Positions 39,118 to 64,000 of a stretch of 64,000 nucleotides of DNA are shown here, piece by piece; position 1 is the first letter of the stretch, and the number at the start of each line of letters is the position of its first letter. The stretch is from an uncultured Solirubrobacterales bacterium (GTDB taxonomy: Bacteria; Actinomycetota; Thermoleophilia; Solirubrobacterales; 70-9): the NCBI GenBank assembly GCA_963763985.1, contig CAVXQO010000025.1:15660-79659 (forward strand). Reading direction: 5' to 3'. A program made the translations under genes and the position numbers. The notes under the pieces were generated by a model that searched no databases, was not told the origin of the DNA, and saw only the letters and a program-made list of their open reading frames with translations.

Positions 39118-39159
39118 TAGCGGGGGCGGGATTCGAACCCGCGATTTTCGGGTTATGAG
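39118..39159 (-). repeat. tRNA-fMet 3'-half fragment, copy 1 (2 mismatches)
   Basis: The reverse complement reads CTCATAACCCGAAAATCGCGGGTTCGAATCCCGCCCCCGCTA. There is no D-arm or 5' acceptor strand upstream. Confidence 0.8.
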
Positions 39160-39256
39160 ATGCCTCTGGGCCGTTTCCTCCGGCGCCCTCAGGCGAGGCT
39201 ATGCAACGTGAGACGAGCTGAGATCAGTTGAGTTTCGGACCCCTCGGGTTCAGGCC

Positions 39257-46283: not shown

Positions 46284-46398
46284 GACGGACTCTCTCACCC
46301 AGCCTCGAGCGAGCTTCGCCCGCGAGACCGCCGCTTGTCACGGCGCGCTCAAACGCATCAACCCCGCTGGCGCCATCGCTTCGTGCGCGCTACGCACA

Positions 46399-46426
46399 CC
46401 AAGGGCCCTCTTGCGAGGGCCCTTGG
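46399..46426. terminator. Hairpin CCAAGGGCCCTC-ttgc-GAGGGCCCTTGG next to tRNA-fragment copy 2
   Basis: Perfect 12-bp arms. It sits at the convergent junction after gene 45375..46283. Confidence 0.55.
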
Positions 46427-46431
46427 CTGAG

Positions 46432-46460
46432 TAGCGGGGGCGGGATTCGAACCCGCGATT
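46432..46460 (-). repeat. tRNA-fMet 3' fragment, copy 2 (T-arm plus acceptor strand only)
   Basis: The reverse complement reads ..ATCGCGGGTTCGAATCCCGCCCCCGCTA. Similarity to the other copies ends 5' of the T-stem. Confidence 0.7.
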
Positions 46461-46701
46461 TGCGCTGCGCGAGAAGCGATAGGCCGGGCGTCGCTACCGC
46501 AAAGGATCTAAAGGAGCAGCACAGACCAGAGGTTCGAGCTTCGTTCGTTCCTTTGAACACGGCATTTCGTTTTGCCGAGCGACGCGATCGTGACGTATGC
46601 CACACCCAGATCGTGCCTTGTGTCACACATTTCTCACCGGCACTGAGGGACCATGAGTGACGTGGAGAGGACCCTGAAGAGGTTGAACGGAGGAGGGGAC
46701 C

Positions 46702-47398: not shown

Positions 47399-48559
47399 AT
47401 GCTCATCGACTTGCACGCCCACTATCCGATGCACCTCGTTCCTCGGAATGAGGGGACAGCCCACCAAGGCTTGGTCCGCTGGCGCGATGCTTTGTGGCGA
47501 GCGCGCTTCGTGAACTTTATGTCGCGCCTTTTCAATTACGAAGGGCCTGGCGAGGAACCCGGGGTCACAATCGAGCTGATGAGAGAAGGCGACGTCGGCG
47601 TGCTGCTCTCAGTGCTCCACAACCCACTCGACGAGATGGACCTCTCGAAGAGCTACGGCGCCCCGCCCGATGGCACGTATCTCCCCTCCCTCCTAGGGCA
47701 GCTCGAATCCGTCGAGGAGAGCGTCGCCTCGGATCCCGGCGTGGCCGTCGCCCATTCGCCGGTTGAGTTCACTGCCGCCCTCACCGCGAACCAGAAGGTG
47801 CTGATCCACTGTGTGGAGGGGGGCTACCACCTTGGCGGAACTGAGGAGGAGATCCGCAGCGCGGTCGGCCAGCTGGCGGCACGTGGCGTGGCCTACATCA
47901 CGCTGGCCCATCTCTTCTGGCGGGATATCGCGACCAACGCGCCGGCGCTCCCATTTCTCCCGGACCCCCTCTACCGGCTCATCTTCCGCCAGCCACGGAA
48001 GGGCTTGAGCGAGCTCGGCATGATCGCGGCAGACGCGATGCTCGAGCACCGAGTCTTGATCGATATCACCCACATGTCCTCCCGAGCGACCGCAGCCACG
48101 CTCGACCTGATGGACCGCCGCGACCCGCAGAAGGAGATGCCGGTTCTGGCTACCCACGAGGCCTGTCGATTCCGGCGTCTGCGCCGGCGCGAGTACAACC
48201 TCTCCGATGACACCATCCGCCGGGTCGCCGAACGCCGCGGCCTGATCGGGATCATCCTCTGCCCCCACTACCTCCTCGGTGGAGGCCCATTCCGGAGGAG
48301 CCAGACGGCGGACTTCGAGGCATCAGTCGACGCTCTCTGCACCCACATCGATCACATTCACGACGTGACACAGTCGCTCGATTACGTGGGCATCGGCTCA
48401 GATCTCGATGGATTTATCAAGCCGGCGCTGACTGGGCTCGGCCATCTCGGGCACATGGCGGCGCTACAGGCCGAGTTGCGGCAGCGCTATGGCGAAGCCG
48501 ACGCCGAGAAGATCTGCTCCGGGAACGCCGTTCGCGTTCTCACCACCGCCTGGAGATAA
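47399..48559 (+). CDS. Membrane-dipeptidase (peptidase M19)-like amidohydrolase-fold protein
   Basis: IDLHAHYP, VEGGYHLG, YITLAHLFWRDIATN, IDITHMS, LATHEA, GIGSDLDGF. Confidence 0.7.
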   Translation: MLIDLHAHYPMHLVPRNEGTAHQGLVRWRDALWRARFVNFMSRLFNYEGPGEEPGVTIELMREGDVGVLLSVLHNPLDEMDLSKSYGAPPDGTYLPSLLGQLESVEESVASDPGVAVAHSPVEFTAALTANQKVLIHCVEGGYHLGGTEEEIRSAVGQLAARGVAYITLAHLFWRDIATNAPALPFLPDPLYRLIFRQPRKGLSELGMIAADAMLEHRVLIDITHMSSRATAATLDLMDRRDPQKEMPVLATHEACRFRRLRRREYNLSDDTIRRVAERRGLIGIILCPHYLLGGGPFRRSQTADFEASVDALCTHIDHIHDVTQSLDYVGIGSDLDGFIKPALTGLGHLGHMAALQAELRQRYGEADAEKICSGNAVRVLTTAWR

Positions 48560-49637: not shown

Positions 49638-49828
49638 CCCTCGACGGTCACCTCGAGGTGTGGTTCAACTCCCGCTCGAAGGCGCAGCGAGTCCGGGGTT
49701 GATCGCTCCGGCGTCGGCGAGTAACGTCGTTGCAGGCGCTCGGCTCCCTGCAGTCTGTGGCCTGGCGCACCAGCAAGGATCGCTGGCTTGAGAATCGGGT
49801 GAGATAGACGGCCACCCCACAAGTCGAA

Positions 49829-51607
49829 CTGCACGTTGGTGACGTAAGCGAGAGCCAGCTCGTAATCGGCAACTACAACACCGTGCAGACGCCGAAGGGC
49901 GCGAAGGTGACGGTGATCCAGGCCGGCGGCGCCCCGGCGCCGCGGCTGCGGGCGGTGCCGATCGCCTATCACCCAGCCGCACGGACCGAGGCCTTCGGTC
50001 GGGAGGAGGAGCTGGCCCTCGCCGGATCCGCCTCCGCCGAATCCCCCGTCCAGCTCTACGGGGGCGAGGGCATCGGCAAAACCACCCTCTTGAAGCTCGC
50101 CGCCGAGCGGGCCAGCCCCCCTCCCGAGGGCGTGGTATTGGAATCCGTCAGGCGAAGGAGCCTGGACGAGGTCCAGGTGAAGCTGTACGCCGATTTCTGG
50201 GAATGCGATGTTCCGTTCCTTCCCGATCCCGCCCAAGTCGGGGGATTCCTGATCGACCGCGAGGCGCTCGTGATCGTCGATGACTGCGAGCTCGACCGCG
50301 AAGACCTCGATGGCCTTCTGGAGGGCGCCCCACGATGCACCTTCGTGATCGGCTCCGAGGCGCGCGCCCTGTGGTCGCGGGGGACCGCCCGGGCGCTGAG
50401 CGGCCTCGACCCGAAGGCCGCAGTCGCCCTGCTCGAGCGCGAGCTCGGCGAGGCGGTAGGTAAGGACCAGCGCGAGGACGCCGAGGCCATCGTGGAGCGG
50501 CTCGATGGGCGGCCACAGTCCCTGGTCGAGACCGCGGCCCTGATCCAGGATGGACGAGCCTCCCTCCAGGAGCTCACCCACGACGCGGGCGCGCTCGATC
50601 GGCGGATCGACCCGGAGACCCTCACGGCCTCGCAGCGGCGCATCCTCGGGGTGCTGGCGGCCCTCGACGGCGCCGCGCTCGGCGCCGAGCACATCGCCGT
50701 TCTCGCGGACGCGCCCCGGGCGGCGAGCGAGCTCGCGGAGCTGGAGCGCCACGGGTGGGTGAAGAGCCAGAGTCCCAGGTATCGCCTCGCTCGCGACTTG
50801 CCGGAGGGGCTCGCCCTCGCCCCCGAGTCGGGGTTCCCCGGTCGCCTGCTCGACCACCTCGCCGTCTGTGCGCGCGGGCAAGCGAAGCCCGCCGCGATCG
50901 CGGCGGAGGGGGAGGCGATCGAGGCCGCACTGGCCCTGGGCGCCGACTCGGGCCGCTGGCGCGATGCCCTCCCCCTCGCGGTCGTGGCCGGGACTGGGCT
51001 GGCGCTCGCCGGCGCCTGGTCGAGCTCGAGGAGCGTGCTCACCTCCGGCCTGACGGCGGCGCGCGCCCTGGCCAGCGAGCCCGCGGAGGCCTACTTCCTG
51101 CACCAGCTGGGGAGCTTCGCCCTCTGCCGGGGAGAGAGCGAGGCCGCCAGCTCCCAACTCGGGGCTGCCCTCGAGATCCGCCAGCGCCTCGGCGACCGCG
51201 AAGGCGCCGAGCTGACCCGCCACAATCTGGGCCAGATCGGGGGCGGCCCCGGCTCAGACGGCGGCGGAGACGGCGGCGGCGGACCGTGGCGGCCGCGCCT
51301 CGGCGTGACCCTGGCGGTGCTCGCCGCGCTCGGCGCCCTCATTCTGGGAGCCGTGCTCCTGACGGGCAACGGAGGGGCACCGGAGCCCGCGGCCAAGAAG
51401 TCGCGGCCGCATCACAACAAACACCCGACGACAAGCGTCGCCGGTTCGACCGACGGCCAAACGAGGGGCACCGGGAGCTCCCCGCCACGCAAGCTCCCCA
51501 CGACGTCCACCACTACCCCGACGGTCCCGCAGAGCCCAACGGTGCCCGCGAGCCCCCCGGTGCCCACAACACCCCTTCAGCAAGACACCACTCCGGCGCT
51601 CAAGTGA
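49829..51607 (+). CDS. Membrane-anchored STAND NTPase (NB-ARC-like P-loop, winged helix, TPR, TM helix, Pro/Thr-rich tail); start unresolved
   Basis: GGEGIGKTTLL (Walker A), ALVIVDDCE (Walker B), GRPQSL, TPR-like YFLHQLGSFALCRGE..ALEIRQRLGD, TM LGVTLAVLAALGALILGAVLL. The frame is open from 49808 and carries a conserved motif upstream of the GTG at 49883. Confidence 0.75.
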   Translation: MHVGDVSESQLVIGNYNTVQTPKGAKVTVIQAGGAPAPRLRAVPIAYHPAARTEAFGREEELALAGSASAESPVQLYGGEGIGKTTLLKLAAERASPPPEGVVLESVRRRSLDEVQVKLYADFWECDVPFLPDPAQVGGFLIDREALVIVDDCELDREDLDGLLEGAPRCTFVIGSEARALWSRGTARALSGLDPKAAVALLERELGEAVGKDQREDAEAIVERLDGRPQSLVETAALIQDGRASLQELTHDAGALDRRIDPETLTASQRRILGVLAALDGAALGAEHIAVLADAPRAASELAELERHGWVKSQSPRYRLARDLPEGLALAPESGFPGRLLDHLAVCARGQAKPAAIAAEGEAIEAALALGADSGRWRDALPLAVVAGTGLALAGAWSSSRSVLTSGLTAARALASEPAEAYFLHQLGSFALCRGESEAASSQLGAALEIRQRLGDREGAELTRHNLGQIGGGPGSDGGGDGGGGPWRPRLGVTLAVLAALGALILGAVLLTGNGGAPEPAAKKSRPHHNKHPTTSVAGSTDGQTRGTGSSPPRKLPTTSTTTPTVPQSPTVPASPPVPTTPLQQDTTPALK

Positions 51608-51710
51608 GCATTGATCAGCAGCCCTTCGGAACAACCGCCAGCGACCGACCGGCAACCTGTCCCGCGAATCGGCCGCCCAAGAGGCGGCCGTCGGCCAGGA
51701 GGTAAACGAA

Positions 51711-52133
51711 ATGTCCGCAGACGATGAATCCGCCGGCAAGTTCAACATTCAGATCGGCGACGTCAGCCGCAGCCAGGTCGTGATCGGCGACTACAACACC
51801 GTTACCCAGAAGGCCGGCCTTACGCCCGAGGAGGCGGCGAAGCTGCGCGGGGTGTTTGAGCAGTTCCGATCATCGGTGGAGAAAGAGGCCCCGCCCGAGC
51901 GGCGCGGCGAGGCGGTGGCGCAGGCCGAGGAGCTGGAGCGCGCGGTGGTCAGCGAGCGGCCCGACGTCGGCCGCGTGCGGACGGTGCTGCGCTGGTTTCG
52001 GGACAACGCCCCACAGTTGGCGGGCGCGGTGGTCAGCGTCGTCGTCAATCCGCTGGTCGGAAAGGCCGTGGAGGGGGCGGGCGAGGCGATCGCCGATCAG
52101 TTCAAGGAGGTGGTCAAGGAGGAGACCGGGTGA
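51711..52133 (+). CDS. Small protein sharing the N-terminal IGDVSxSQVVIGxYNTV motif with the upstream STAND NTPase
   Basis: KFNIQIGDVSRSQVVIGDYNTVTQKAG aligns with QVELHVGDVSESQLVIGNYNTVQTPKG at 49808-49900. Confidence 0.6.
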   Translation: MSADDESAGKFNIQIGDVSRSQVVIGDYNTVTQKAGLTPEEAAKLRGVFEQFRSSVEKEAPPERRGEAVAQAEELERAVVSERPDVGRVRTVLRWFRDNAPQLAGAVVSVVVNPLVGKAVEGAGEAIADQFKEVVKEETG

Positions 52134-52189
52134 TGCGCGACTGCTTCGCCTGGCTAGAAGCTCGCCATCTAGTCTGGCCGCACGAAAAC

Positions 52190-52215
52190 GAAAGGCCCGG
52201 ATCTCCGGGCCTTTC
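52190..52215. terminator. Hairpin GAAAGGCCCGG-atct-CCGGGCCTTTC next to tRNA-fragment copy 3
   Basis: Perfect 11-bp arms. On the minus strand it is followed by GTTTTCG. It sits at a convergent junction. Confidence 0.6.
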
Positions 52216-52220
52216 GTGAG

Positions 52221-52262
<42 letters not shown>

Positions 52263-52369
52263 ATGCCTTGAAGTCGTTCGGTGGGCTGATCCTGAACGAC
52301 GCGAGGCACGCTGAGAGGGGCTGACATCAGCTGAGGTTCTGTCAGTTCGGTACCACCGTTGGTACCACC
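52263..52369 (-). repeat. Conserved 107-nt module 5' of fragment copy 3 (homologous to 54191..54297)
   Basis: A gap-free hand alignment gives 81 of 107 identical positions. GGTACCAC occurs twice, 12 nt apart, starting exactly 87 nt from the fragment in both copies. Confidence 0.6.
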
Positions 52370-54095: not shown

Positions 54096-54116
54096 TTGTG
54101 GCGCGCACTCTAAACA

Positions 54117-54143
54117 CCAAGGGCCCTCTTTCGAGGGCCCTTG
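54117..54143. terminator. Hairpin CCAAGGGCCCTC-tttc-GAGGGCCCTTG next to tRNA-fragment copy 4
   Basis: The arms are almost the same as at 46399. The flanking acaccaaggg and tgagtagcggggg are also shared with copy 2. Confidence 0.55.
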
Positions 54144-54148
54144 ATGAG

Positions 54149-54190
<42 letters not shown>

Positions 54191-54297
54191 AAGCCCCGAG
54201 GCAGCTCGGTGGGCTCACGCCGAGCGACCCCAGGCACGACGAGATGAGCTGGGATCGGCTGAGTTTCTCTCAGTTCGGTACCACGGCTGGTACCACG
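54191..54297 (-). repeat. Conserved 107-nt module 5' of fragment copy 4 (homologous to 52263..52369)
   Basis: See the 52263..52369 entry. GGTACCAC lies at 54277 and 54289. Confidence 0.6.
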
Positions 54298-55361: not shown

Positions 55362-58300
55362 TCACTTCACAAGCCGGTACTCAAGAACAAGGATCGCGTC
55401 GAGTAGCTTGGCGCTGTCGATCACGCCATCTCCAGCTGCGGCGGCCGGCGGAGACAGCGGCCCAGCATCTTTGATTGCAAGCTTGAGCTGAGTGGTCATG
55501 CCACTGGTGAACAAGGCCTCGAACCCGTCATTCGTGGGCAGGTTGCCAAGGGTGTCGTCGGCGGTGAAGCTCGACCGGTTGCTCCCGTTGATCGCGATCC
55601 TGAATCCAGTTGTCGCCTGACCCTTCTTTGGCACCAGCGCCAACCTGGCGCCCGCCACCCTCGTGGATCGCCCCGCGGCAAACATCGGCAGGAACTTCTC
55701 CGACAGGTTGAAGTCGATTTCGGTGTCCTTCGGGCTGGTCACCAGACGGTTGAATTCAGTCGGAAACTCGTGGCGCAGACTGAACGAGCGGAAGAGCTTC
55801 ACGTCCTTGAAGAAGGTCAGCACCTGATTTTGGATGGCCGCCATGCTCGTCTCAACCGAGTCACGGAACGTGCCGTCTTCCTTCGCCGAGTAATCAACGT
55901 GCAGGATCACATCACTGATCGAGTCGTAATCGAAGGGCCGGAAATTCTTCGGCAGCGAGAGTTTCCAGGAGCTCACTGCGCCGGCGCCTTCAAAGTGGTT
56001 GAAGCGCTCATCGCGGAAATTGAACTCGAAGACTCCGGCGTCGGATAGCCCGCGGCTGGTTGCGATTGAGTCGGCACGGGACAGGTTCACCGTCTTCAGC
56101 GCGGCGGCGTTTGCATCTGGCTCCCTGCGAATCTGGGACCCGGTCATGGTCAGGGTCGCGCCGACATTTGCGTACGGACCGGTCACGCAAGGCACCGACA
56201 CCCGCAGCGCGCGAATCCTCCGTGAGTAATGGCCCGGATAGGTGAGGTCGTAGAACAGCTCGGGGATCGCGAAGTCGCAGCTACCGGTCTGCTTGAGTTT
56301 CTGCAGCGCCGCCGGGTTCCACTGCGCCAGCGAGAACGACTGATTGACTTCAAGGCAGCGGTAGTTCTGCTCGATGTACTTGCGTTCAAGGTCTTGGAGG
56401 TCGGCGAGCAACCGGTCGCCGGCGAGGAGGCCGGACTTTGAGGCGTCCCAGTAGTTCGCTTCAATGACCGGATCGTCGTCGGAGTCGAGCTCGAACTGGA
56501 ATGCGCGTTCGGCCGCCTTCGCCAGCTCCAACGCGCCGTTGAACGTGTCGTGGTGCAGATCGCTGAGCTGCTTGGACATCCACGTGAACAGTCCGAGGCC
56601 GGTGAACCGCTCTCGATAGAAATCGAAGATCTCCTCGGTTTGCTCGATTGACTTCTCGTGCACTTCCAGCGAGCGCTCGGCGATCTGCTTGCGAAACTCC
56701 GCTGCCTTTATCTGCTTGTCGAGCTGTTTGAGCTCGTTGTCGGCCATCTTCGCCTGGTGCGCCCATTCCTCGCCGCGGCGCTGGAACGTGGCTTCCAGCC
56801 CTGCCGACGCGGATGCGGCCTCGGCGGCGGTGCCGAACGCCTGGCTCGCAAACGCAAAACGTGCTGCCGCGCCGCTGACTTCCAATCCTCCGTACTTCAT
56901 CGCGGTCGGGGCCCCGAACTGCGGCAGCAGACTGGTCGCCGCGGCGATCAGCTGAATCGTCGCTTCCAGCGTGTGCAGCCCCGAGACGACGTGGCGCGAC
57001 ACCTGCTGTGTGGTCTCCCAACCGGAAAGACCGTCGCTCACGAGCTTGTCGTAGAAATCCTTGCGGTATTGCACGCCCTCGCGCTGGCGAGTGATGCTGT
57101 CGACCGTCTCTTCGGCATTGTTGATTTCCCAGCGCTGAATCTGCGTGCGCAGCTTCAACAGGTTCTGCTCGTGCACCGCGCGGAGCTTGTTGAGCTCTTC
57201 GGTGTCCCGCTTCTCCATTGCTGCCTGTAGCTGGGAGCCGAGCGCCTGCACTGACGTCGCGCTTTGGCGAGCCTTCTCGAGTAGATAGGTGAAGCGATAC
57301 GCAGGCGTGCCGGCCGACGTGCTCGCCAGCACATCGTCGAGCGACAGCCCGGCGGCGGCCATCCGGACGAGCAATCGTGGGTCGATCTCCGGCGCGAACA
57401 GCGCGAGCTGCCGGCGCACGCCGGTGATGTCCATGCAATTGCGAACCTTGAAAAGCCGGTCTTCGACCCTGTCCCAATATGCCAGCAGCTCCTTGTTCTC
57501 GGGAACGCAGAAGATCACGCTCGAGGTCGCGACACTGGCCGGTACGAACTTGATCGATCCGAAATCGTCGTCGCGATGTGGCGCGCCGACGACGCCGCCC
57601 TGGAAGCGGGGCTCCGTGTCCAGCTTGTTCTTGATCTTCGGATCGATCTGAAAACCGCCGAAGTCCGGAATCACGCCCGGCTCGACATCGCCTCCGCGCG
57701 GCGGATCGGCCGGCGCCGGCGCGAATCCGCTGACCTCGCCGCCCAGCGACAATTCTTTGAGCGGCGTGCCTTCTGCCGCGGCCGGCAGCGTGAGCGGCGA
57801 CTGGTCCCAACCGAACGGGTTTGCGAGCTGGCCGCCGTCGTATTCGTAAGTGCCCTGGCCATAACCACCGTCGCCCTCTCCGCCTTGGCCGGCGCCGCCC
57901 CCGTACTGCGGCGCAGCCGACATCGCGTAGCTCTTCGTCACCATGACTTCACTGGCCGAGCCCGTGTCGATCGTGTAGACGTACTGGTTCGGATCGCTCT
58001 TGACCGCGCCGGCGTCAAGCGATTCGAGTTCGATCAGGAAATCCTGCGCCACGTTCTTCTTGCGCTGGTCGGACACCATCTGATACGTGACCGGGTCTTT
58101 GGCTTCGTCGCAGTCGCCGACGTCGGCGGGCCGATCGCCAAGGATCTCCGCGGCCATCAAATAGAGCATCGTGGCCTCGTTGACCGACTCCATCGTGAAC
58201 TGCGTGAACAGTGAATCCGCCCAATCGAGCAGGTTGTCGATGTACTTCATGACGATCGACTTCTGATACGCGCTGAATCGCACTCGCGCGATCGCGTGCG

Positions 58301-61300
58301 GGTTGAACGGGTCCTTCTTGTACGCGCTGATCGCGTCGGGGTCGACCAGAAGGTCGCGCATCGACTTGGCGTTGATCTTGTCGAGGTTGCGGAACTCGAG
58401 GTACTGCCAGACGCGGTTGCTGGGATTGCGCAGCCCGGCAACGTCGGGCGCGGTCGGGTCGAAGATACGGTCGTACCAGTACTGCGCCGCGGCGAACTTG
58501 CCTTGGCTGTTCAGGTGGTTCGCGATCAAAAACGGGATCTGGAAAAAGATCTCGCGGTAATACATCCCGAAGGGCCCGGTGAAGTCGAGTTTTCCGGCGT
58601 TGCCCTTGTTCTCGACGTTCACCGTCAGCGAAAGCGGCAGCTGCGGTTCCTTCAGGTGAAGCTGGTTGTCGATCTTCAGCATTTCTTCGGTGCCGTCCTC
58701 GAAGAGCTTCCGCGATAGCTGGTCGGCGAGCGTGGTGCCGAGTCGCCGGACCAGGTAAGTCGGGGCCGCGCGAACCGATCCCTGCAGCAACAGGATGTCG
58801 CCGGAGCTGTCGATCAGCGCGTCGGTGAGGGAGCCGTTGATCACGTCGAACTCCGCGGCGGGGTCACTTAGCGTCGCGACTGAGACGTGTGTGTTCGTCT
58901 CGATGTCGGTCGGGGTCCACCAGGGGAACAGCTTCATCAGCCGATCCGCGTCGGCGTACTGCGCGCGAGCCCAGTATTCACCGGCCGCGTACCATCCCGA
59001 GGAGGCCGAATAACGCATGTCGTAAATCGACGATCCCCTCCGGTATGGCCAACGCGGTACTCCGGCAGGCGCGAGTGGGTCGGATTCGAAAACACCGGGC
59101 AGCGGGCCGACCTTGCGCCGATAGAAATCCACCTTGCCATGTCTTTGAAAGCCAACTCCGGTAACGCGCAGCTCGTCGCCGGCGAGTTCGGGGAACACGT
59201 CGGTCCAGCCGAAGTTATTCAGCCTGAACGAATCCTGGGGTTCCCAATGCGGCGGTCCGTTGGGATCGGTTTGCGGCGTCGCCATCGGGGCCAGTGCGGC
59301 GCTCAGTGGCGAGAAGTTGACCTTGCCACCCTCGTCGGCCGCCCGCATGTCGTCGATGTCGGTCTTCGCGGCGGCAAAATCGCCTTCACGCACCTTCTTC
59401 TCAAGCCCGATCCAGATCGTCGCGACCTTGTACATCTGGGTAGCAGGCAACGTCGTGATTTGCTGTGCGAGGGCCCTCCAGGCCGACAACGCAGCGTTGA
59501 TCTCGGATTGCTCGGCCAGTGGGTCCCAAATCGAATCGCCGTCCGCCAGCTGAAAGCCATCCAATCCGATCCGCTGCGGCGGCGACCAGTCGCCGTCGAG
59601 CTGCAGCGACGTGTACTTCATCGCGAACTTGTGCTTGTAGCCCGCAAACTTCGAGGAACCGGCGACGATGAGGCTCTTCGGCGTCGTCGTGATCTCGAAC
59701 CACAAGACGTAGAGCTTGCCCCGGAACACCACGGGGGCGACGCGCTGGCCGGGAATCTGCACGTCGATCTTGCGCCACGGCGTCCAGGCGATGCGCGGCT
59801 TCGGGCCAGTGACGGAAGGCAGCTCGCTGTAGTACGCGTTTTCGACAGTGCGGTAGTAGAACGTCGCCGGATCGCCCGGGCCCACGCCAACCAGATGAAG
59901 CGTGTCGAGCTTGGCCACGTCGTCCTTCGCGTGGAAGCTGCCGCAAATCTTCAGCCCGGCGACTTCGTCGAAATCCGCCATGTACGTGGCGTACGCCTCT
60001 TGCACGTTCTCCGCGGTGATCTGCTTTTGCAGCAGCGTGTCCTCGAGCTGCTTGAACTGCGGTGTCTTGTCGTCCCGGAGCTCGGGCTCGATGTAATTCT
60101 CGGGAAACAGGAAGACCTTGCGGTTGGCCTCCCACACGCGGTAGTTCTTGCGCCAGGACCATTCCTTGATCGGGATCACTGCCGGCGAGACCTTCACCTT
60201 GCCATCGCGGTCCTGCTCGAGGTTCATCAGCACCCGCTGTACGTAGAACTGAACACTCGAGCTCGCGGCAACCACCAGCGACGTGCGGGCGCAGCCCTCG
60301 ACCTGCACGTCCATCAAGACGTGGTTTGAGATCTCGTCCTTCGTCCTGAATATCCACTCGTCGGTGTTGAGTCCGATGCGAAACGCTGGGCTCGTCAGCA
60401 GGTAGTCGGCCAGCGCGTCCCGCTTGCGCCCGCGCAGCTTGTCTTCAAATCCTTCGATCGTTTCGGCGAACCTGTTTTCGTCGGGATACTTGCTGCGGAA
60501 GGCGGCAAAGAAACCGTCGGCAGCGCGGCGCAGGTCGTCGAAGTTGTCTGAAAGGGTCAACTTGAACGTCTCTCCGTCGACGCCCAGGTATTCGGCCAGC
60601 GCGACGGCTCCCGCGAGCTGCTTCAGCGCGATGATCGGGTCTGAATTGCCGGCCGGGAGTGCCGACTTGACGTGCGGTAGCACGGACGCCACGCGGGCAC
60701 GCTCGGCCGCAAGCGCGGACGCGAGCTTGTCGAGATCGAGGTTGGCCGCCCTCAGGCCTGTGGTCAGCACGTAGCGAAGGTCCACTGGGCTCGGCGCGTC
60801 GGCTTCCGGATCGAAGGCGGGGTCGGGCGCAGTGGCGAGCGCGGTGAAGTCGACCACGCGATGGACTGATTCAACGGTGATGCCGGCGGTGAGGGCGAAC
60901 ATCGCCTTCGACGCGAGCACGAAGTCGAGAGCGTCCTTGTCGAAGACCGGTGAGCCGAGCAGACGGTCATAGCGGCCGAGCGCGGCGAGCATGTCCGCCA
61001 GCACGGCGGGGGCGTTGGTGACCGGATCGCGCCAGAGTTCAAGCTCGAGCTGCTGAGCCGTCGGCGCGACCGCGGCGATTGCGCTGATGCGTTCGAATCG
61101 CTCGGCCGACAGCCCGAGGAGGTTGGCCATCCTTGGCGGTAGCGCCATGGCCGGCGTAAAGCGCTTCAGCAGGTCGCGCATCGCTCGAATCGTCTCCTGC
61201 TTCCATGCAGTTCTGTCCGCGGCGGCGGTGATTTCCGTTGGGACCACCGAGTTCGGCACGTCCAACGCGCCGGCGGGGATGTCGAACCCGGCGGTGACGC

Positions 61301-64000
61301 GGTAGTCCGTGCTGCCCGCAAGCTTTGTGAAAGCCGGCGACGCGTTGGCGGGGGCGGAGTTCGCGGTGATCAGCAACCGCGACTGCTCATCGTTGACGCG
61401 GCCGGTGCCCGCGAGGACCGTGTCGTCAAACCGCAGTGCGCGCTCGGATTGGATGGCCTGTACCAACGCCACGGCGAGCTTCGACCCGTCGGGCAGGTCC
61501 GTCGGACGCAGCGTCTTCTTGCCGGTGAGCGCGGCAATCGCGTCGGCGTCGAATGCGCTGGCCGATTGCCACTCGGCGACCTCACGCAGAGCGGTCAAAT
61601 CGTCGATACCGGAAACACTGGTCTTGCCGACCAGGTCGAGCAGCTGAAAGAGCTGCGCGATCGAGACATCGAGGATCTGCGCGAGCCGTGCGTGCCGGTA
61701 GAGAAGCGTCAGGTTGGGCGCCGTCACCTTGAACTCTTTGTTCGCCGGGACCGGTGAGGCGCACAGCTTTGTTTCAAGCCCGGCGATCAGCTGCGCAAGC
61801 TGTTCGTCGCTGACCTGCAAACCGGCCGTCAGGCGATGCAGCATGTTGGCGTCTGGGCTGGCGAAACCGGCCTGCGGGTTCGTGTTGAACGCGGGGTGCG
61901 TGAACAGTTTCGTGTCCGGCCACGGCCCGTCTTGACTGCGGAATTGCGGCAGGTTGAAGAGCCTGTCGAACAACGATCGATCGTCGCTCACGGGATCGCT
62001 CGGAATCGCCGTCCACAGCGAGATCAGGTCTTCAAGCGGAATATCCCAATGCCCTTGCAGTTCGACAAGCTTCGCGACCGCAAGCAGCGCCGGCGCGTCC
62101 AGTTGCTGGGAGACCTGGTTGTCGCGCAGCGTCTTGAGCACGAAATCGAGCTCTGCGACCGTCCACGGGACGTGCCGCCAAAGACGCACGAATCGCTGAA
62201 TCCGGTCCAGCCGGTCGCCGGTGAGGCCGTTCACCATCTCGATGTCGTTTTGCACGCTGCCGCTCGATGACCGCTGCGCGTCGATCGTCAGCTTGGTGCC
62301 GGTCCCCGGCTGCACAAATCGCGTGGCGATGACTTCGCCGAATTCCGCGCGGGTCAGGCCGCTCGTTTTCAGAATCACCGATATCTCGACCGGATCGAGG
62401 ACCGCCGACATCGACGCCGGAACGAAGACCGCGAACAGCCCCTGCAGATACGCGCGGCTCTTCGACGTGATGATCAGATCGAACGTCGCCTTCGAAAGAC
62501 CGAGCTGCGCGCGGCACAGGACCTCGGGGTCCTTGCTGAAGCTACGGGCGACGTCCGCCCTCGTCCGCTCGAAATGACCTAGATAGACCGTCAAACGTTC
62601 GAGCGGCAGCGAAAACGGCTGAGCCAGAGAACCGTCGAAGCCGGCAAGCTTTTCGTAGACCTTCTTCTCGACTGCCGCTCGGTCTTTGATGTTGATGTCC
62701 GGGCTCAGCTGCTTCGCGATCAGGTTCTCGAGCACCGAGTTGACGATGTCGAGCGTCGCGACGATCTCATTTGCGTTCTTGCACGTGAGTTCGAGCGTCC
62801 AGAGGTCTGGCCGGCGCGTCTTGAGGTTCAGCGGATGAGATTGCTTCGCTCCCGTGAAGGTGGAAGCGGTGGCCGTGTCATCGACGAACTTCATGAGGTC
62901 CACGAAGTACGCCGAGGGGCTCAGCACCGACTGGCAGTGCGAGCAATTGCAGAAGTTCTGGCTGCCGAAAAGCTCCGCAAAGCCCGGCAGCCGTTTCAGG
63001 AAGTCGCCGGGTGCGTTCGCGACCGCACCGTTGAGCGAGACCATCTCGTCCCGGATCAAATTGTGAATCGCAGCCCAATCCAGGCCGGCCACATTCGTGC
63101 GGTCCTTAGCGGACGCGTGGGCAGCCTTGGTGTCCATGATCGGAATGCCGGTTTTCTTCGCCAGCACTTCAACGTCCTCAGATGCGATCTCAAATGCGGA
63201 GCCGTACCCGGCCTCGAGCAGCTTGACTGTGTCCATCGCATTACCGGCAACTTCGTTAGTGCGCTGAACCTTGCGGAGGGTCGCCAGGACGGTCTCGCGT
63301 TCGGCCTTCTTGACGCCGCTGAAGCTGATCGATCCAACGTCTTCGCTGTCGGGGTGATAGTCGAGCGAGAGAAAGTCGACGTCCGGGTTGCGGTTGTAGG
63401 TGGTTCGCAGCAGTTGCCGCTCGCGGCCCTTCATTGCGCCGCGCTTACCGGAGCCGTCGAGCACGCGGGAAAACAGAAACTGATTCGGGAAGAGGCGCGC
63501 CGTCCGCGCCGTCAGTTCGCGCGCGTAGGTCTCGCGATCAACGCCCTTTGGCGGCTTTGTCTTCGATTCCGCGAGCGCCGCCTGCCAGTCCTCGGGCTCG
63601 AGCCCGACGAGATCCTCCGTGCTCCGCAGCGCGGAATTCTTGGCTCCGGACAGCTTCGTCGCTTTGATCGCCTGCGTGAGTTCGAGTTCGCCGCCGGTCA
63701 GGTGGTAGATCGCGGCCGTCAGTCCGAGGTCGTTCGCTTGGGCGCCGGTGATTGCTTTGCGGTCGACAAGGTCGCCGATCGCGGCGTCGCTGATCAGCGA
63801 AACCTCGTCGACGGACTCCAGGACCGCACCGCGAGCGGACTTCGACAACGCCGCCGCATCCACGAGTGAATGCAGTTCGACGCGGTCGGGATGCTCGGCG
63901 AGGTCCACAGACTGCGTGAACTCGTCGGCAACGTCGCGCGACACGATGTTCTCTGCGATCGCCGCGTCGAGGGTGGCTCGCAGCGTGGTGACCGGCGTCG
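55362..64000 (-). CDS. TcA-like toxin-complex subunit A (giant, more than 2878 aa); 5' end beyond the window
   Basis: A single open frame runs to the window edge. It has the N-terminal CNCSHCQSVLSPSAYFVDLMKF motif. The channel/linker region RRGEEWAHQAKMADNELKQLDKQIKAAEFRKQIAE..RERFTGLGLFTWM and the C-terminal IRALRVSVPCVTGPYANVGATLTM match TcA pore and TcB-binding segments. Confidence 0.85.
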   Translation of the reverse strand, partial: TPVTTLRATLDAAIAENIVSRDVADEFTQSVDLAEHPDRVELHSLVDAAALSKSARGAVLESVDEVSLISDAAIGDLVDRKAITGAQANDLGLTAAIYHLTGGELELTQAIKATKLSGAKNSALRSTEDLVGLEPEDWQAALAESKTKPPKGVDRETYARELTARTARLFPNQFLFSRVLDGSGKRGAMKGRERQLLRTTYNRNPDVDFLSLDYHPDSEDVGSISFSGVKKAERETVLATLRKVQRTNEVAGNAMDTVKLLEAGYGSAFEIASEDVEVLAKKTGIPIMDTKAAHASAKDRTNVAGLDWAAIHNLIRDEMVSLNGAVANAPGDFLKRLPGFAELFGSQNFCNCSHCQSVLSPSAYFVDLMKFVDDTATASTFTGAKQSHPLNLKTRRPDLWTLELTCKNANEIVATLDIVNSVLENLIAKQLSPDINIKDRAAVEKKVYEKLAGFDGSLAQPFSLPLERLTVYLGHFERTRADVARSFSKDPEVLCRAQLGLSKATFDLIITSKSRAYLQGLFAVFVPASMSAVLDPVEISVILKTSGLTRAEFGEVIATRFVQPGTGTKLTIDAQRSSSGSVQNDIEMVNGLTGDRLDRIQRFVRLWRHVPWTVAELDFVLKTLRDNQVSQQLDAPALLAVAKLVELQGHWDIPLEDLISLWTAIPSDPVSDDRSLFDRLFNLPQFRSQDGPWPDTKLFTHPAFNTNPQAGFASPDANMLHRLTAGLQVSDEQLAQLIAGLETKLCASPVPANKEFKVTAPNLTLLYRHARLAQILDVSIAQLFQLLDLVGKTSVSGIDDLTALREVAEWQSASAFDADAIAALTGKKTLRPTDLPDGSKLAVALVQAIQSERALRFDDTVLAGTGRVNDEQSRLLITANSAPANASPAFTKLAGSTDYRVTAGFDIPAGALDVPNSVVPTEITAAADRTAWKQETIRAMRDLLKRFTPAMALPPRMANLLGLSAERFERISAIAAVAPTAQQLELELWRDPVTNAPAVLADMLAALGRYDRLLGSPVFDKDALDFVLASKAMFALTAGITVESVHRVVDFTALATAPDPAFDPEADAPSPVDLRYVLTTGLRAANLDLDKLASALAAERARVASVLPHVKSALPAGNSDPIIALKQLAGAVALAEYLGVDGETFKLTLSDNFDDLRRAADGFFAAFRSKYPDENRFAETIEGFEDKLRGRKRDALADYLLTSPAFRIGLNTDEWIFRTKDEISNHVLMDVQVEGCARTSLVVAASSSVQFYVQRVLMNLEQDRDGKVKVSPAVIPIKEWSWRKNYRVWEANRKVFLFPENYIEPELRDDKTPQFKQLEDTLLQKQITAENVQEAYATYMADFDEVAGLKICGSFHAKDDVAKLDTLHLVGVGPGDPATFYYRTVENAYYSELPSVTGPKPRIAWTPWRKIDVQIPGQRVAPVVFRGKLYVLWFEITTTPKSLIVAGSSKFAGYKHKFAMKYTSLQLDGDWSPPQRIGLDGFQLADGDSIWDPLAEQSEINAALSAWRALAQQITTLPATQMYKVATIWIGLEKKVREGDFAAAKTDIDDMRAADEGGKVNFSPLSAALAPMATPQTDPNGPPHWEPQDSFRLNNFGWTDVFPELAGDELRVTGVGFQRHGKVDFYRRKVGPLPGVFESDPLAPAGVPRWPYRRGSSIYDMRYSASSGWYAAGEYWARAQYADADRLMKLFPWWTPTDIETNTHVSVATLSDPAAEFDVINGSLTDALIDSSGDILLLQGSVRAAPTYLVRRLGTTLADQLSRKLFEDGTEEMLKIDNQLHLKEPQLPLSLTVNVENKGNAGKLDFTGPFGMYYREIFFQIPFLIANHLNSQGKFAAAQYWYDRIFDPTAPDVAGLRNPSNRVWQYLEFRNLDKINAKSMRDLLVDPDAISAYKKDPFNPHAIARVRFSAYQKSIVMKYIDNLLDWADSLFTQFTMESVNEATMLYLMAAEILGDRPADVGDCDEAKDPVTYQMVSDQRKKNVAQDFLIELESLDAGAVKSDPNQYVYTIDTGSASEVMVTKSYAMSAAPQYGGGAGQGGEGDGGYGQGTYEYDGGQLANPFGWDQSPLTLPAAAEGTPLKELSLGGEVSGFAPAPADPPRGGDVEPGVIPDFGGFQIDPKIKNKLDTEPRFQGGVVGAPHRDDDFGSIKFVPASVATSSVIFCVPENKELLAYWDRVEDRLFKVRNCMDITGVRRQLALFAPEIDPRLLVRMAAAGLSLDDVLASTSAGTPAYRFTYLLEKARQSATSVQALGSQLQAAMEKRDTEELNKLRAVHEQNLLKLRTQIQRWEINNAEETVDSITRQREGVQYRKDFYDKLVSDGLSGWETTQQVSRHVVSGLHTLEATIQLIAAATSLLPQFGAPTAMKYGGLEVSGAAARFAFASQAFGTAAEAASASAGLEATFQRRGEEWAHQAKMADNELKQLDKQIKAAEFRKQIAERSLEVHEKSIEQTEEIFDFYRERFTGLGLFTWMSKQLSDLHHDTFNGALELAKAAERAFQFELDSDDDPVIEANYWDASKSGLLAGDRLLADLQDLERKYIEQNYRCLEVNQSFSLAQWNPAALQKLKQTGSCDFAIPELFYDLTYPGHYSRRIRALRVSVPCVTGPYANVGATLTMTGSQIRREPDANAAALKTVNLSRADSIATSRGLSDAGVFEFNFRDERFNHFEGAGAVSSWKLSLPKNFRPFDYDSISDVILHVDYSAKEDGTFRDSVETSMAAIQNQVLTFFKDVKLFRSFSLRHEFPTEFNRLVTSPKDTEIDFNLSEKFLPMFAAGRSTRVAGARLALVPKKGQATTGFRIAINGSNRSSFTADDTLGNLPTNDGFEALFTSGMTTQLKLAIKDAGPLSPPAAAAGDGVIDSAKLLDAILVLEYRLVK

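Follow-up and report, generated by a model that had tools for sequence, protein, structure and literature searches.

A candidate two-gene signaling module: a transmembrane STAND NTPase and a small helical protein with a common N-terminal motif in Solirubrobacterales

Why do a membrane-spanning NTPase and the small protein encoded next to it carry much the same short sequence at their N-termini? This question is raised by two adjacent genes in a 64,000-nt stretch of contig CAVXQO010000025.1 (the window; all coordinates are positions in it) that belongs to a metagenome-assembled genome (MAG) of an uncultured Solirubrobacterales bacterium. The first gene encodes an NB-ARC/TPR protein of the STAND class, termed here the receptor, and the second one encodes a protein of 140 aa, termed the partner. 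The pair is a real conserved two-gene module, with an extra translational oddity in the lineage of the window. Our preferred interpretation, to which we assign a probability of about 0.55, is that the locus encodes a signaling module in which the STAND receptor templates its small partner via the shared motif.

Shared motif and conservation of the gene pair

The open reading frame (ORF) of the NTPase, listed as starting from GTG at 49883 and ending at 51607, is open back to an in-frame TAG at 49805-49807 and reads TATPQVELHVGDVSESQLVIGNYNTVQTPKG; the N-terminus of the small protein is MSADDESAGKFNIQIGDVSRSQVVIGDYNTV. The alignment of the frame from 49808 with the next gene, pointed out in the initial annotation, was reproduced by BLASTP (E = 1e-8), with 13 of 19 residues identical in the motif core. 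Both proteins thus bear at their N-termini a motif of 20-35 residues rich in Gly, Gln, Asn, Val, and Ile, and within the assembly (3.07 Mb, ~78% complete) this motif is confined to these two genes. The two copies also match at the DNA level (83% identity across 47 nt; repeat family D4); gene conversion, in our inference, is not needed to explain this match, because the residues are identical and the third codon positions are G+C-rich in a high-G+C genome. The elements of the gene pair are as follows.

49808..51607, plus strand: membrane-spanning NB-ARC/TPR STAND NTPase frame, 599 codons and a stop (BLASTP, AlphaFold, Foldseek)
49820..49885, plus strand: receptor-side motif QVELHVGDVSESQLVIGNYNTV (BLASTP match; predicted local distance difference test score, pLDDT, <50; ratio of the proportions of non-synonymous and synonymous differences, pN/pS, 0.00-0.15 over codons 1-25)
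to G41 at 49930, plus strand: predicted beta-prone extension of the receptor-side motif
51697..51702, plus strand: Shine-Dalgarno sequence AGGAGG, 8 nt 5' of the ATG of the small gene (sequence reading)
51711..52133, plus strand: small partner gene, 140 aa, unannotated family
51741..51806, plus strand: partner-side motif KFNIQIGDVSRSQVVIGDYNTV, residues 11-32 of 140 (BLASTP and alignment; AlphaFold pLDDT <50 for residues 1-34)
52194..52214, plus strand: hairpin GGCCCGG-ATCT-CCGGGCC followed by TTT, 3' of the small gene, a possible terminator (sequence reading)

The hairpin was not called by the consensus terminator scan, and the promoter and terminator scan of the locus yielded nothing useful.

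Comparison of cognate motifs shows that the copies of a receptor and its partner co-vary. For 23 non-redundant pairs, local-alignment scores were summed and compared with permuted pairings: the cognate pairs scored 1450, versus 996 +/- 72 after permutation (p < 5e-5). Permutation within clades gave p = 5e-5, 5e-4, and 3e-4, where 5e-4 was obtained for the Solirubrobacterales group alone and 3e-4 for the remaining group alone. The mean score of a cognate receptor-partner comparison is 63, versus 33 when the partner motifs of orthologs from one big clade are compared with those from the other. Several pairs have variants of their own, namely NNxxxVGxxNxQI..HG in L055, VHTGxGDII in L033, and GGQV in L027:

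L055: receptor NNHLIVGHYNIQIGSIHG, partner NNRVAVGSHNMQIDNVHG
L033: receptor ETRVGDVAGAVHTGRGDII, partner ETHIGSVSGPVHTGKGDII
L027: receptor GDVYAGGQVIVGD, partner GDVHGGQVTVGD

Relative to average protein composition, taken from general knowledge, the motifs are enriched in Q (2.4x), V (2.0x), I (2.0x), N (1.95x), and G (1.9x) and depleted in K (0.42x), L (0.29x), and P (0.28x), which is the bias reported for bacterial amyloid signaling (BASS) motifs. In both proteins, the motif is predicted by AlphaFold to be disordered. By its composition, the motif resembles amyloid signaling motifs rather than a globular adaptor domain. A shared N-terminal adaptor domain had been considered in the initial annotation; the sharing holds, but the shared element is a short, predicted disordered segment and not a globular domain.

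In a scan of one genome per species, the small gene was found in Solirubrobacterales, Chloroflexota, Cyanobacteria (Nostoc, Leptolyngbya, Nodosilinea), Thermoanaerobaculia, Rhodothermales, and Dadabacteria. Its occurrence is patchy, with 3 of 301 genomes of the order of the window and 0 of 6 congeners. In three genomes with unrelated flanks, the small gene lies directly 3' of a gene for a protein of 557-736 aa on the same strand. Among 78 loci with at least 1.5 kb of upstream sequence, an NTPase homolog is encoded immediately upstream of the small gene in 56, and four more loci have it split by frameshifts (60 of 78 in total). The adjacency of the two genes, whose conservation was to decide on the initial proposal, is therefore kept in several phyla amid varying neighborhoods, and the genomic comparison supports an operon-like pair that is conserved but patchy in its distribution. 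When metagenomes were scanned with the N-terminus of the NTPase alone, no relatives were retrieved.

Other small-gene loci have different upstream genes: a NACHT protein (L099, L113) or a 224-aa protein (L033). The upstream proteins in L099:1-3258, L113:3-2618, and L108 are of the NACHT type (NPHP3_N-like) with N-termini beyond the contig ends, and the small-protein homologs beside them have a motif of the type GGDxIQxTIGD. We also observed a second partner class (L052:2632-4218, L136:789-2336, L133), comprising proteins of ~520 aa with a matching N-terminal motif followed directly by a transmembrane helix and TPRs; these proteins lack the NTPase, and their gene is the second one upstream of the small gene.

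Architecture of the receptor and of the small partner

All sequence features of the large protein named in the initial annotation (the Walker A and Walker B motifs, the GRP motif, the transmembrane helix, and the Pro/Thr-rich tail) were located. Invariance is given for alignment A4 of 29 homologs, which also served as the AlphaFold input.

50060..50083, plus strand: Walker A, GGEGIGKT (G88, G90, and K91 invariant)
50267..50284, plus strand: Walker B, LVIVDD (D158 and D159 invariant)
50507..50515, plus strand: GxP motif GRP, ARC1 GLPL-like (G234 nearly invariant, P236 invariant)
50834..51229, plus strand: TPR-like helical repeats, residues 343-474 (AlphaFold helices; weak TPR_12 match, stronger in orthologs)
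51299..51361, plus strand: single transmembrane helix LGVTLAVLAALGALILGAVLL, L498-L518, with WRPR just before it (Kyte-Doolittle mean 2.69 over 19 residues; AlphaFold helix 499-516)
51362..51604, plus strand: Pro/Thr-rich extracytoplasmic tail of 81 aa without a folded ectodomain

The window NTPase itself has no NB-ARC match in Pfam, and its ATPase_2 score of 20 bits is below the cut-off of 33.2. The protein aligns by BLASTP to the partners of the small gene in Nostoc (E = 3e-61) and Anaerolinea (E = 2e-58), and orthologs match Pfam NB-ARC with 33.4 and 33.7 bits, versus a cut-off of 23.5. The AlphaFold model (pLDDT ~90 for residues 45-480) comprises a P-loop domain, a helical and winged-helix region, and TPR-like helices. 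Foldseek matched this model to the STAND-TPR structure 6mfv (E = 4.6e-10), Apaf-1 (5e-8), and MalT (1.4e-7), as well as to NRC2/3 (NRC2 within the span of 5e-10 to 2e-7), CED-4, and Avs3.

In all 56 non-redundant homologs with a complete tail, a strongly hydrophobic single helix is located 26-75 residues past the TPRs; Arg, Lys, or Trp usually comes before it, and 10-905 residues follow. The part beyond the helix is variable: (i) homologs have Big_9/cadherin, fn3, PASTA, or CARDB domains, (ii) Solirubrobacterales homologs have one or two Ig-like repeats with a Cys pair, and (iii) the window copy, L012, and L075 have only a Pro/Thr stalk (81 residues in the window). These data support a membrane-spanning NB-ARC-type STAND protein with a variable ectodomain. 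Within the clade of the window, the ectodomains form a mosaic, with a Pro/Thr stalk in the window and L012 and a Cys-pair Ig-like repeat in L016, L018, and L019; the ectodomain types cut across the relatedness of the NTPase cores, which suggests exchange or repeated loss.

For the small protein, an alignment of 34 sequences was submitted to AlphaFold. Residues 1-34 have pLDDT <50, and the remainder is predicted to form five helices (residues 39-59, 65-80, 86-99, 101-119, and 125-139).

51825..52127, plus strand: five-helix domain, residues 39-139 (AlphaFold pLDDT 80-90 for residues 40-110)
52017..52061, plus strand: core of the conserved hydrophobic helix, LAGAVVSVVVNPLVG (G105, P114, V116, G117, and K118 invariant)

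The invariant residues of the family cluster in W95-F96, P101, G105, P114, V116-G117-K118, and A123-G124. The hydrophobic stretch LAGAVVSVVVNPLVGK, seen in the initial annotation, is present and conserved; the Kyte-Doolittle mean of the helix core (residues 103-117) is 1.98 for 15 residues and 1.49 for 19 residues. The protein has no significant Pfam match, the sub-threshold ones being Metal_resist (16.9 bits versus 29.2) and DUF4404, and no match in NCBIfam, in PADLOC, or in a profile search against PDB sequences. Pfam EACC1 (PF19953) had no match genome-wide at E<=10, nor in the Pfam scan.

The family of the small protein includes 114 homologs at an identity of at least 48%, and a search of 1.84 billion proteins with its profile retrieved 553 clusters (50% identity). 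Throughout the representative library, the domain occupies the very C-terminal end, and the motif precedes the helical domain in all members. In longer proteins, the unit of motif and helical domain follows a CHAT protease, a tandem protein kinase, or DUF4062, and in P0134 it follows an N-terminal segment that is EAD1-like as judged by eye. Such fusions were observed in P0243, P0175, P0192, P0263, P0169, and P0134; the chains of P0243 and P0191 contain the motif (GQVHxGSGxI) once more, closer to the N-terminus. A sensing or conflict role of the pair, as considered in the initial annotation, is supported, because it fits both the CHAT, kinase, DUF4062, and EAD1-like (by eye) fusions and the pairing with NACHT proteins. 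Judging from this genomic context, the small protein would be the effector or executioner of the module.

Start of the receptor gene and surroundings of the locus

How the receptor motif comes to be translated is a question of its own in the clade of the window. Thirteen relatives of the Solirubrobacterales type begin with (G/A/T)TG AGC GAN, exactly 13 codons before the conserved Gly of the motif. In the window and in five relatives (L012/L020, L016-L019), the same register reads GTG AG(A/G) TA(G/A), and codon 3 is therefore a stop (TAG or TAA) in six of six clade members.

49798..49802, plus strand: Shine-Dalgarno-like GGTGA, 5 nt before ACG 49808 (invariant in six related genomes)
49799..49807, plus strand: ancestral start GTG, then AGA and the in-frame stop TAG at codon 3 (in the register of the starts of relatives)

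Between the stop at 49805-49807 and GTG 49883 there is no ATG, GTG, or TTG; a CTG is found at 49829. GTG 49883 is not conserved, being GTC or ATC in three relatives. The absence of a start codon upstream of the motif, stated in the initial annotation, therefore holds for this segment but overlooks GTG 49799, two codons before the stop, and the start is obscured by a conserved nonsense codon at codon 3 rather than by an indel, one of the two possibilities raised there.

Comparison of the six clade genomes revealed indels upstream of the stop and none downstream. In the 25 codons from the stop to GTG 49883, each comparison gave 2-6 synonymous and 0-2 non-synonymous changes, and the resulting pN/pS of 0.00-0.15 is lower than that of the NTPase core (0.24-0.34). 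In the most divergent comparisons, pS is similar, ~0.29-0.35 in the motif codons versus 0.25-0.33 in the core. Thus, selection acts on the motif at the protein level, and its codons must be translated; ribosomes may reach them by readthrough from GTG 49799 or through reinitiation at ACG 49808 or CTG 49829. Public soil-metagenome contigs span the start site, and one of them carries a variant with GTG in place of CTG at 49829, a change that would provide this strain with a canonical start codon within the frame of the motif.

Several other accounts of the stop were considered and rejected. Other long ORFs in the window terminate at TAG and TAA, which excludes an alternative genetic code, and none of the 51 tRNAs of the genome has a CUA, UUA, or UCA anticodon, as a suppressor tRNA would. 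A sequencing error is contradicted by the presence of the stop in six separately listed MAG records. Coding does not continue upstream of the stop, where the indels are found and the frame is not conserved, and a pseudogene is made very improbable by the pN/pS of the motif codons.

The surroundings of the pair are marked by repeats resembling the 3' half of a tRNA. Four direct copies divide the accessory region (39118-39171, 46432-46485, 52221-52274, and 54149-54202), and they are 76-89% identical to the reference copy; ARAGORN found no intact tRNA in the window.

52221..52274, no strand assigned: tRNA 3'-half repeat bounding the segment (family D2, four copies; partner copy 46432-46485)

The copies at 46432 and 52221 bear out the flanking of the pair by tRNA-half repeats described in the initial annotation. 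The assignment of the pair to a module of lower G+C content was not borne out: the pair itself has 72-73% G+C, and a lower value, 63-65%, is confined to the region of 46-49 kb. Two of the tRNA-half copies lie in a longer repeat, a 184-nt unit (52185-52368 and 54113-54296, 79% identity), and a GC hairpin is common to 46385-46425 and 54103-54143. The M19-like hydrolase and the metallophosphoesterase noted earlier as neighbors do adjoin the pair in the window but are not conserved with it. Their ORFs (M19-like, 47399..48559; metallophosphoesterase, listed from ATG 48489) share 71 nt (48489-48559), and the true start of the metallophosphoesterase may be further downstream than this ATG. On the minus strand, 55362-63944 is an uninterrupted ORF of 2860 aa with 60-65% G+C that looks by eye like the A component of insecticidal toxin complexes.

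Candidate mechanism, rival explanations and related systems

The preferred interpretation, that the receptor templates its partner, can be laid out as a series of steps: (i) a signal, either a ligand or a stress, would make the NTPase oligomerize, as STAND proteins do, (ii) oligomerization would gather the N-terminal motifs of the receptor into a beta-sheet nucleus, amyloid-like or in the form of a beta-solenoid, (iii) the nucleus would recruit the small protein and template its matching motif, and (iv) templating would free the helical domain of the small protein, which would most likely act on the membrane via its hydrophobic helix. In the clade of the window, the motif of the receptor is still made, by readthrough or reinitiation and probably at a low level, despite the stop at codon 3. 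The biological role of such a module may be defense, cell death, or contact sensing.

A number of observations weigh against this interpretation. The permutation tests leave room for some contribution of shared ancestry, and for the motif AlphaFold gives only disorder. The hydrophobic helix of the partner is borderline for membrane insertion (family mean Kyte-Doolittle 1.56), and the fold of the small protein matches no PDB entry (Foldseek best E = 1.1), including HeLo, MLKL, and other helical pore formers. Among the defense models of PADLOC-DB 2.0, zero families match either protein. Finally, the receptor motif of the clade has no canonical start and the receptor of the window has no folded ectodomain; therefore the window copy may be weakly expressed or losing its function.

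Such a loss has a stronger form, in which the NTPase is decaying here: the stop at codon 3 would have removed the motif, translation would start at the downstream GTG, and the likeness of the motifs would be a relic. The stop at 49805, the absence of a canonical start before 49883, the lack of the Ig-like ectodomain that L016, L018, and L019 carry, and the frameshift that cuts L017 agree with decay. However, six genomes have the stop in common at pS ~0.3, yet frames of 590-692 codons are open in five of them; the 25 motif codons are under stricter constraint than the core; and GTG 49883 is itself not conserved. We thus consider decay very improbable. A larger, though still minor, share of probability goes to an ordinary stoichiometric contact between the matched motifs, for instance pairing of beta-strands in a hetero-oligomer, with the small protein regulating the NTPase as an inhibitor, chaperone, or tether. 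Co-variation and adjacency are compatible with any homotypic contact, and the partner has no toxic or enzymatic domain recognizable by Pfam, NCBIfam, PADLOC, or PDB fold, has a hydrophobic helix under the usual transmembrane threshold, and in some loci is found without the NTPase (the motif-TM-TPR protein, where TM denotes the transmembrane helix, of L052 and L136). What makes this contact the less attractive explanation is that the composition of the motif is like that of amyloid signaling motifs, that the motif is short and predicted to be disordered in both proteins, and that a terminal unit of motif and domain in CHAT, kinase, and EAD1-like fusions suits an output module better.

The mechanism proposed here could also serve a non-lethal purpose, namely transmembrane reading of the envelope or of neighbor cells, with membrane remodeling or development as examples of the output. 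All homologs being single-pass membrane proteins with ectodomains of adhesion or peptidoglycan-binding type, the absence of a PADLOC match, and the housekeeping-like flanking genes in several genomes are in line with this role. Nevertheless, we regard it as unlikely, given the patchy distribution in the order and among congeners, the location of the locus in an accessory segment between tRNA-half repeats, and the fact that CHAT, DUF4062, and EAD1-like fusions and the pairing with NACHT are typical of conflict systems (PMC7159879).

Several described systems resemble the pair in part. In the HET-S/NWD2 system of Podospora anserina, the N-terminal motif of an NLR templates the motif of a helical pore-forming partner. 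The receptor region studied here has two beta-arch-like halves, which recall the windings of a beta-solenoid. Unlike the pair described here, HET-S/NWD2 is eukaryotic, its receptor is cytosolic, and its HeLo domain is N-terminal and its prion domain C-terminal. Closer in layout are the Bell/BASS-NLR pairs of filamentous bacteria and archaea (Dyrka et al. 2020, bioRxiv 10.1101/2020.01.06.895854). The common features are (i) adjacent collinear genes, (ii) an NB-ARC or NACHT protein with TPRs and an N-terminal motif of 20-25 residues, (iii) a small helical protein of ~120-140 aa with a matching motif, (iv) overrepresentation of Q, N, G, V, and I and scarcity of K, P, and L in the motif, and (v) occurrence in Actinomycetota, Cyanobacteria, and Chloroflexota. 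The order of the parts differs: in our family the partner motif is N-terminal, whereas theirs is at the C-terminus of the effector; the hydrophobic helix of the partner is near the C-terminus, whereas theirs is N-terminal; and the gene order is receptor first. In addition, our NLR is transmembrane with an ectodomain, and our partner has no match to Pfam HeLo, HeLo-like, or SesA or to PDB, a comparison that did not include a Bell model.

In the Bab/Agp (BASS11) abortive-infection pair of Escherichia coli (Ibarlosa et al. 2024, bioRxiv 10.1101/2024.11.07.622273), adjacent genes have a common amyloid-forming motif, and a large sensor activates a small helical membrane-targeting protein. Our pair likewise consists of two adjacent genes with a common motif, amyloid-forming in Bab/Agp and known here from sequence; the Bab motif, in contrast, is C-terminal. 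The effector-associated domains EAD1-11 of NTP-dependent conflict systems (Kaur et al. 2020, PMC7159879) are also terminal modules that are common to adjacent genes, couple a core component to an effector, and are most alike in adjacent copies. However, they are small globular domains, whereas the segment described here has 20-35 aa and pLDDT <50; the Pfam scan of both proteins contained no EAD family, and EAD1-like (by eye) sequence appears only as the fusion partner in P0134. The anti-phage STAND proteins (Avs, bNACHT) share the STAND fold, Avs3 being among the structural matches, but are cytosolic all-in-one proteins with fused effectors.

A methods paper of 2025 states that amyloid motifs are located at NLR N-termini or effector C-termini (PMC12261475), and in the searchable literature we found no description of membrane-anchored bacterial NLRs, of N-terminal effector motifs, or of the present layout. 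By analogy, the family looks like an opposite-order version of the known motif-coupled NLR-effector pairs with a transmembrane receptor. A more far-reaching view, which we put forward tentatively and hold to be rather doubtful, is that the family consists of transmembrane NLRs that sense the cell exterior with swappable Ig, cadherin, fn3, or PASTA ectodomains and signal inward by prion-like templating to a new executioner domain, a mirror image of Bell/HeLo with the motif first and the membrane-inserting helix last. The conserved start-stop arrangement GTG-AGR-TAR of the clade, located just ahead of the motif, would then be a translational safety catch, in which rare readthrough or reinitiation yields a competent receptor.

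In the published amyloid signaling pairs, the motif lies at the N-terminus of a cytosolic NLR and at the C-terminus of its effector, and tools for the detection of such motifs are trained on this layout. As the layout of the effector is opposite here, existing screens would miss such a family together with its new effector domain and its membrane-spanning NLR. If the preferred interpretation is true, NLR-type signaling would be extended to sensing outside the cell. The fusions of the partner domain with CHAT, kinase, DUF4062, and EAD1-like sequences tie it to the conflict-system network of Kaur et al. as an unexplored output module, and the conserved codon-3 stop ahead of a motif under strong constraint makes non-canonical translation tractable in an actinobacterium of high G+C content.

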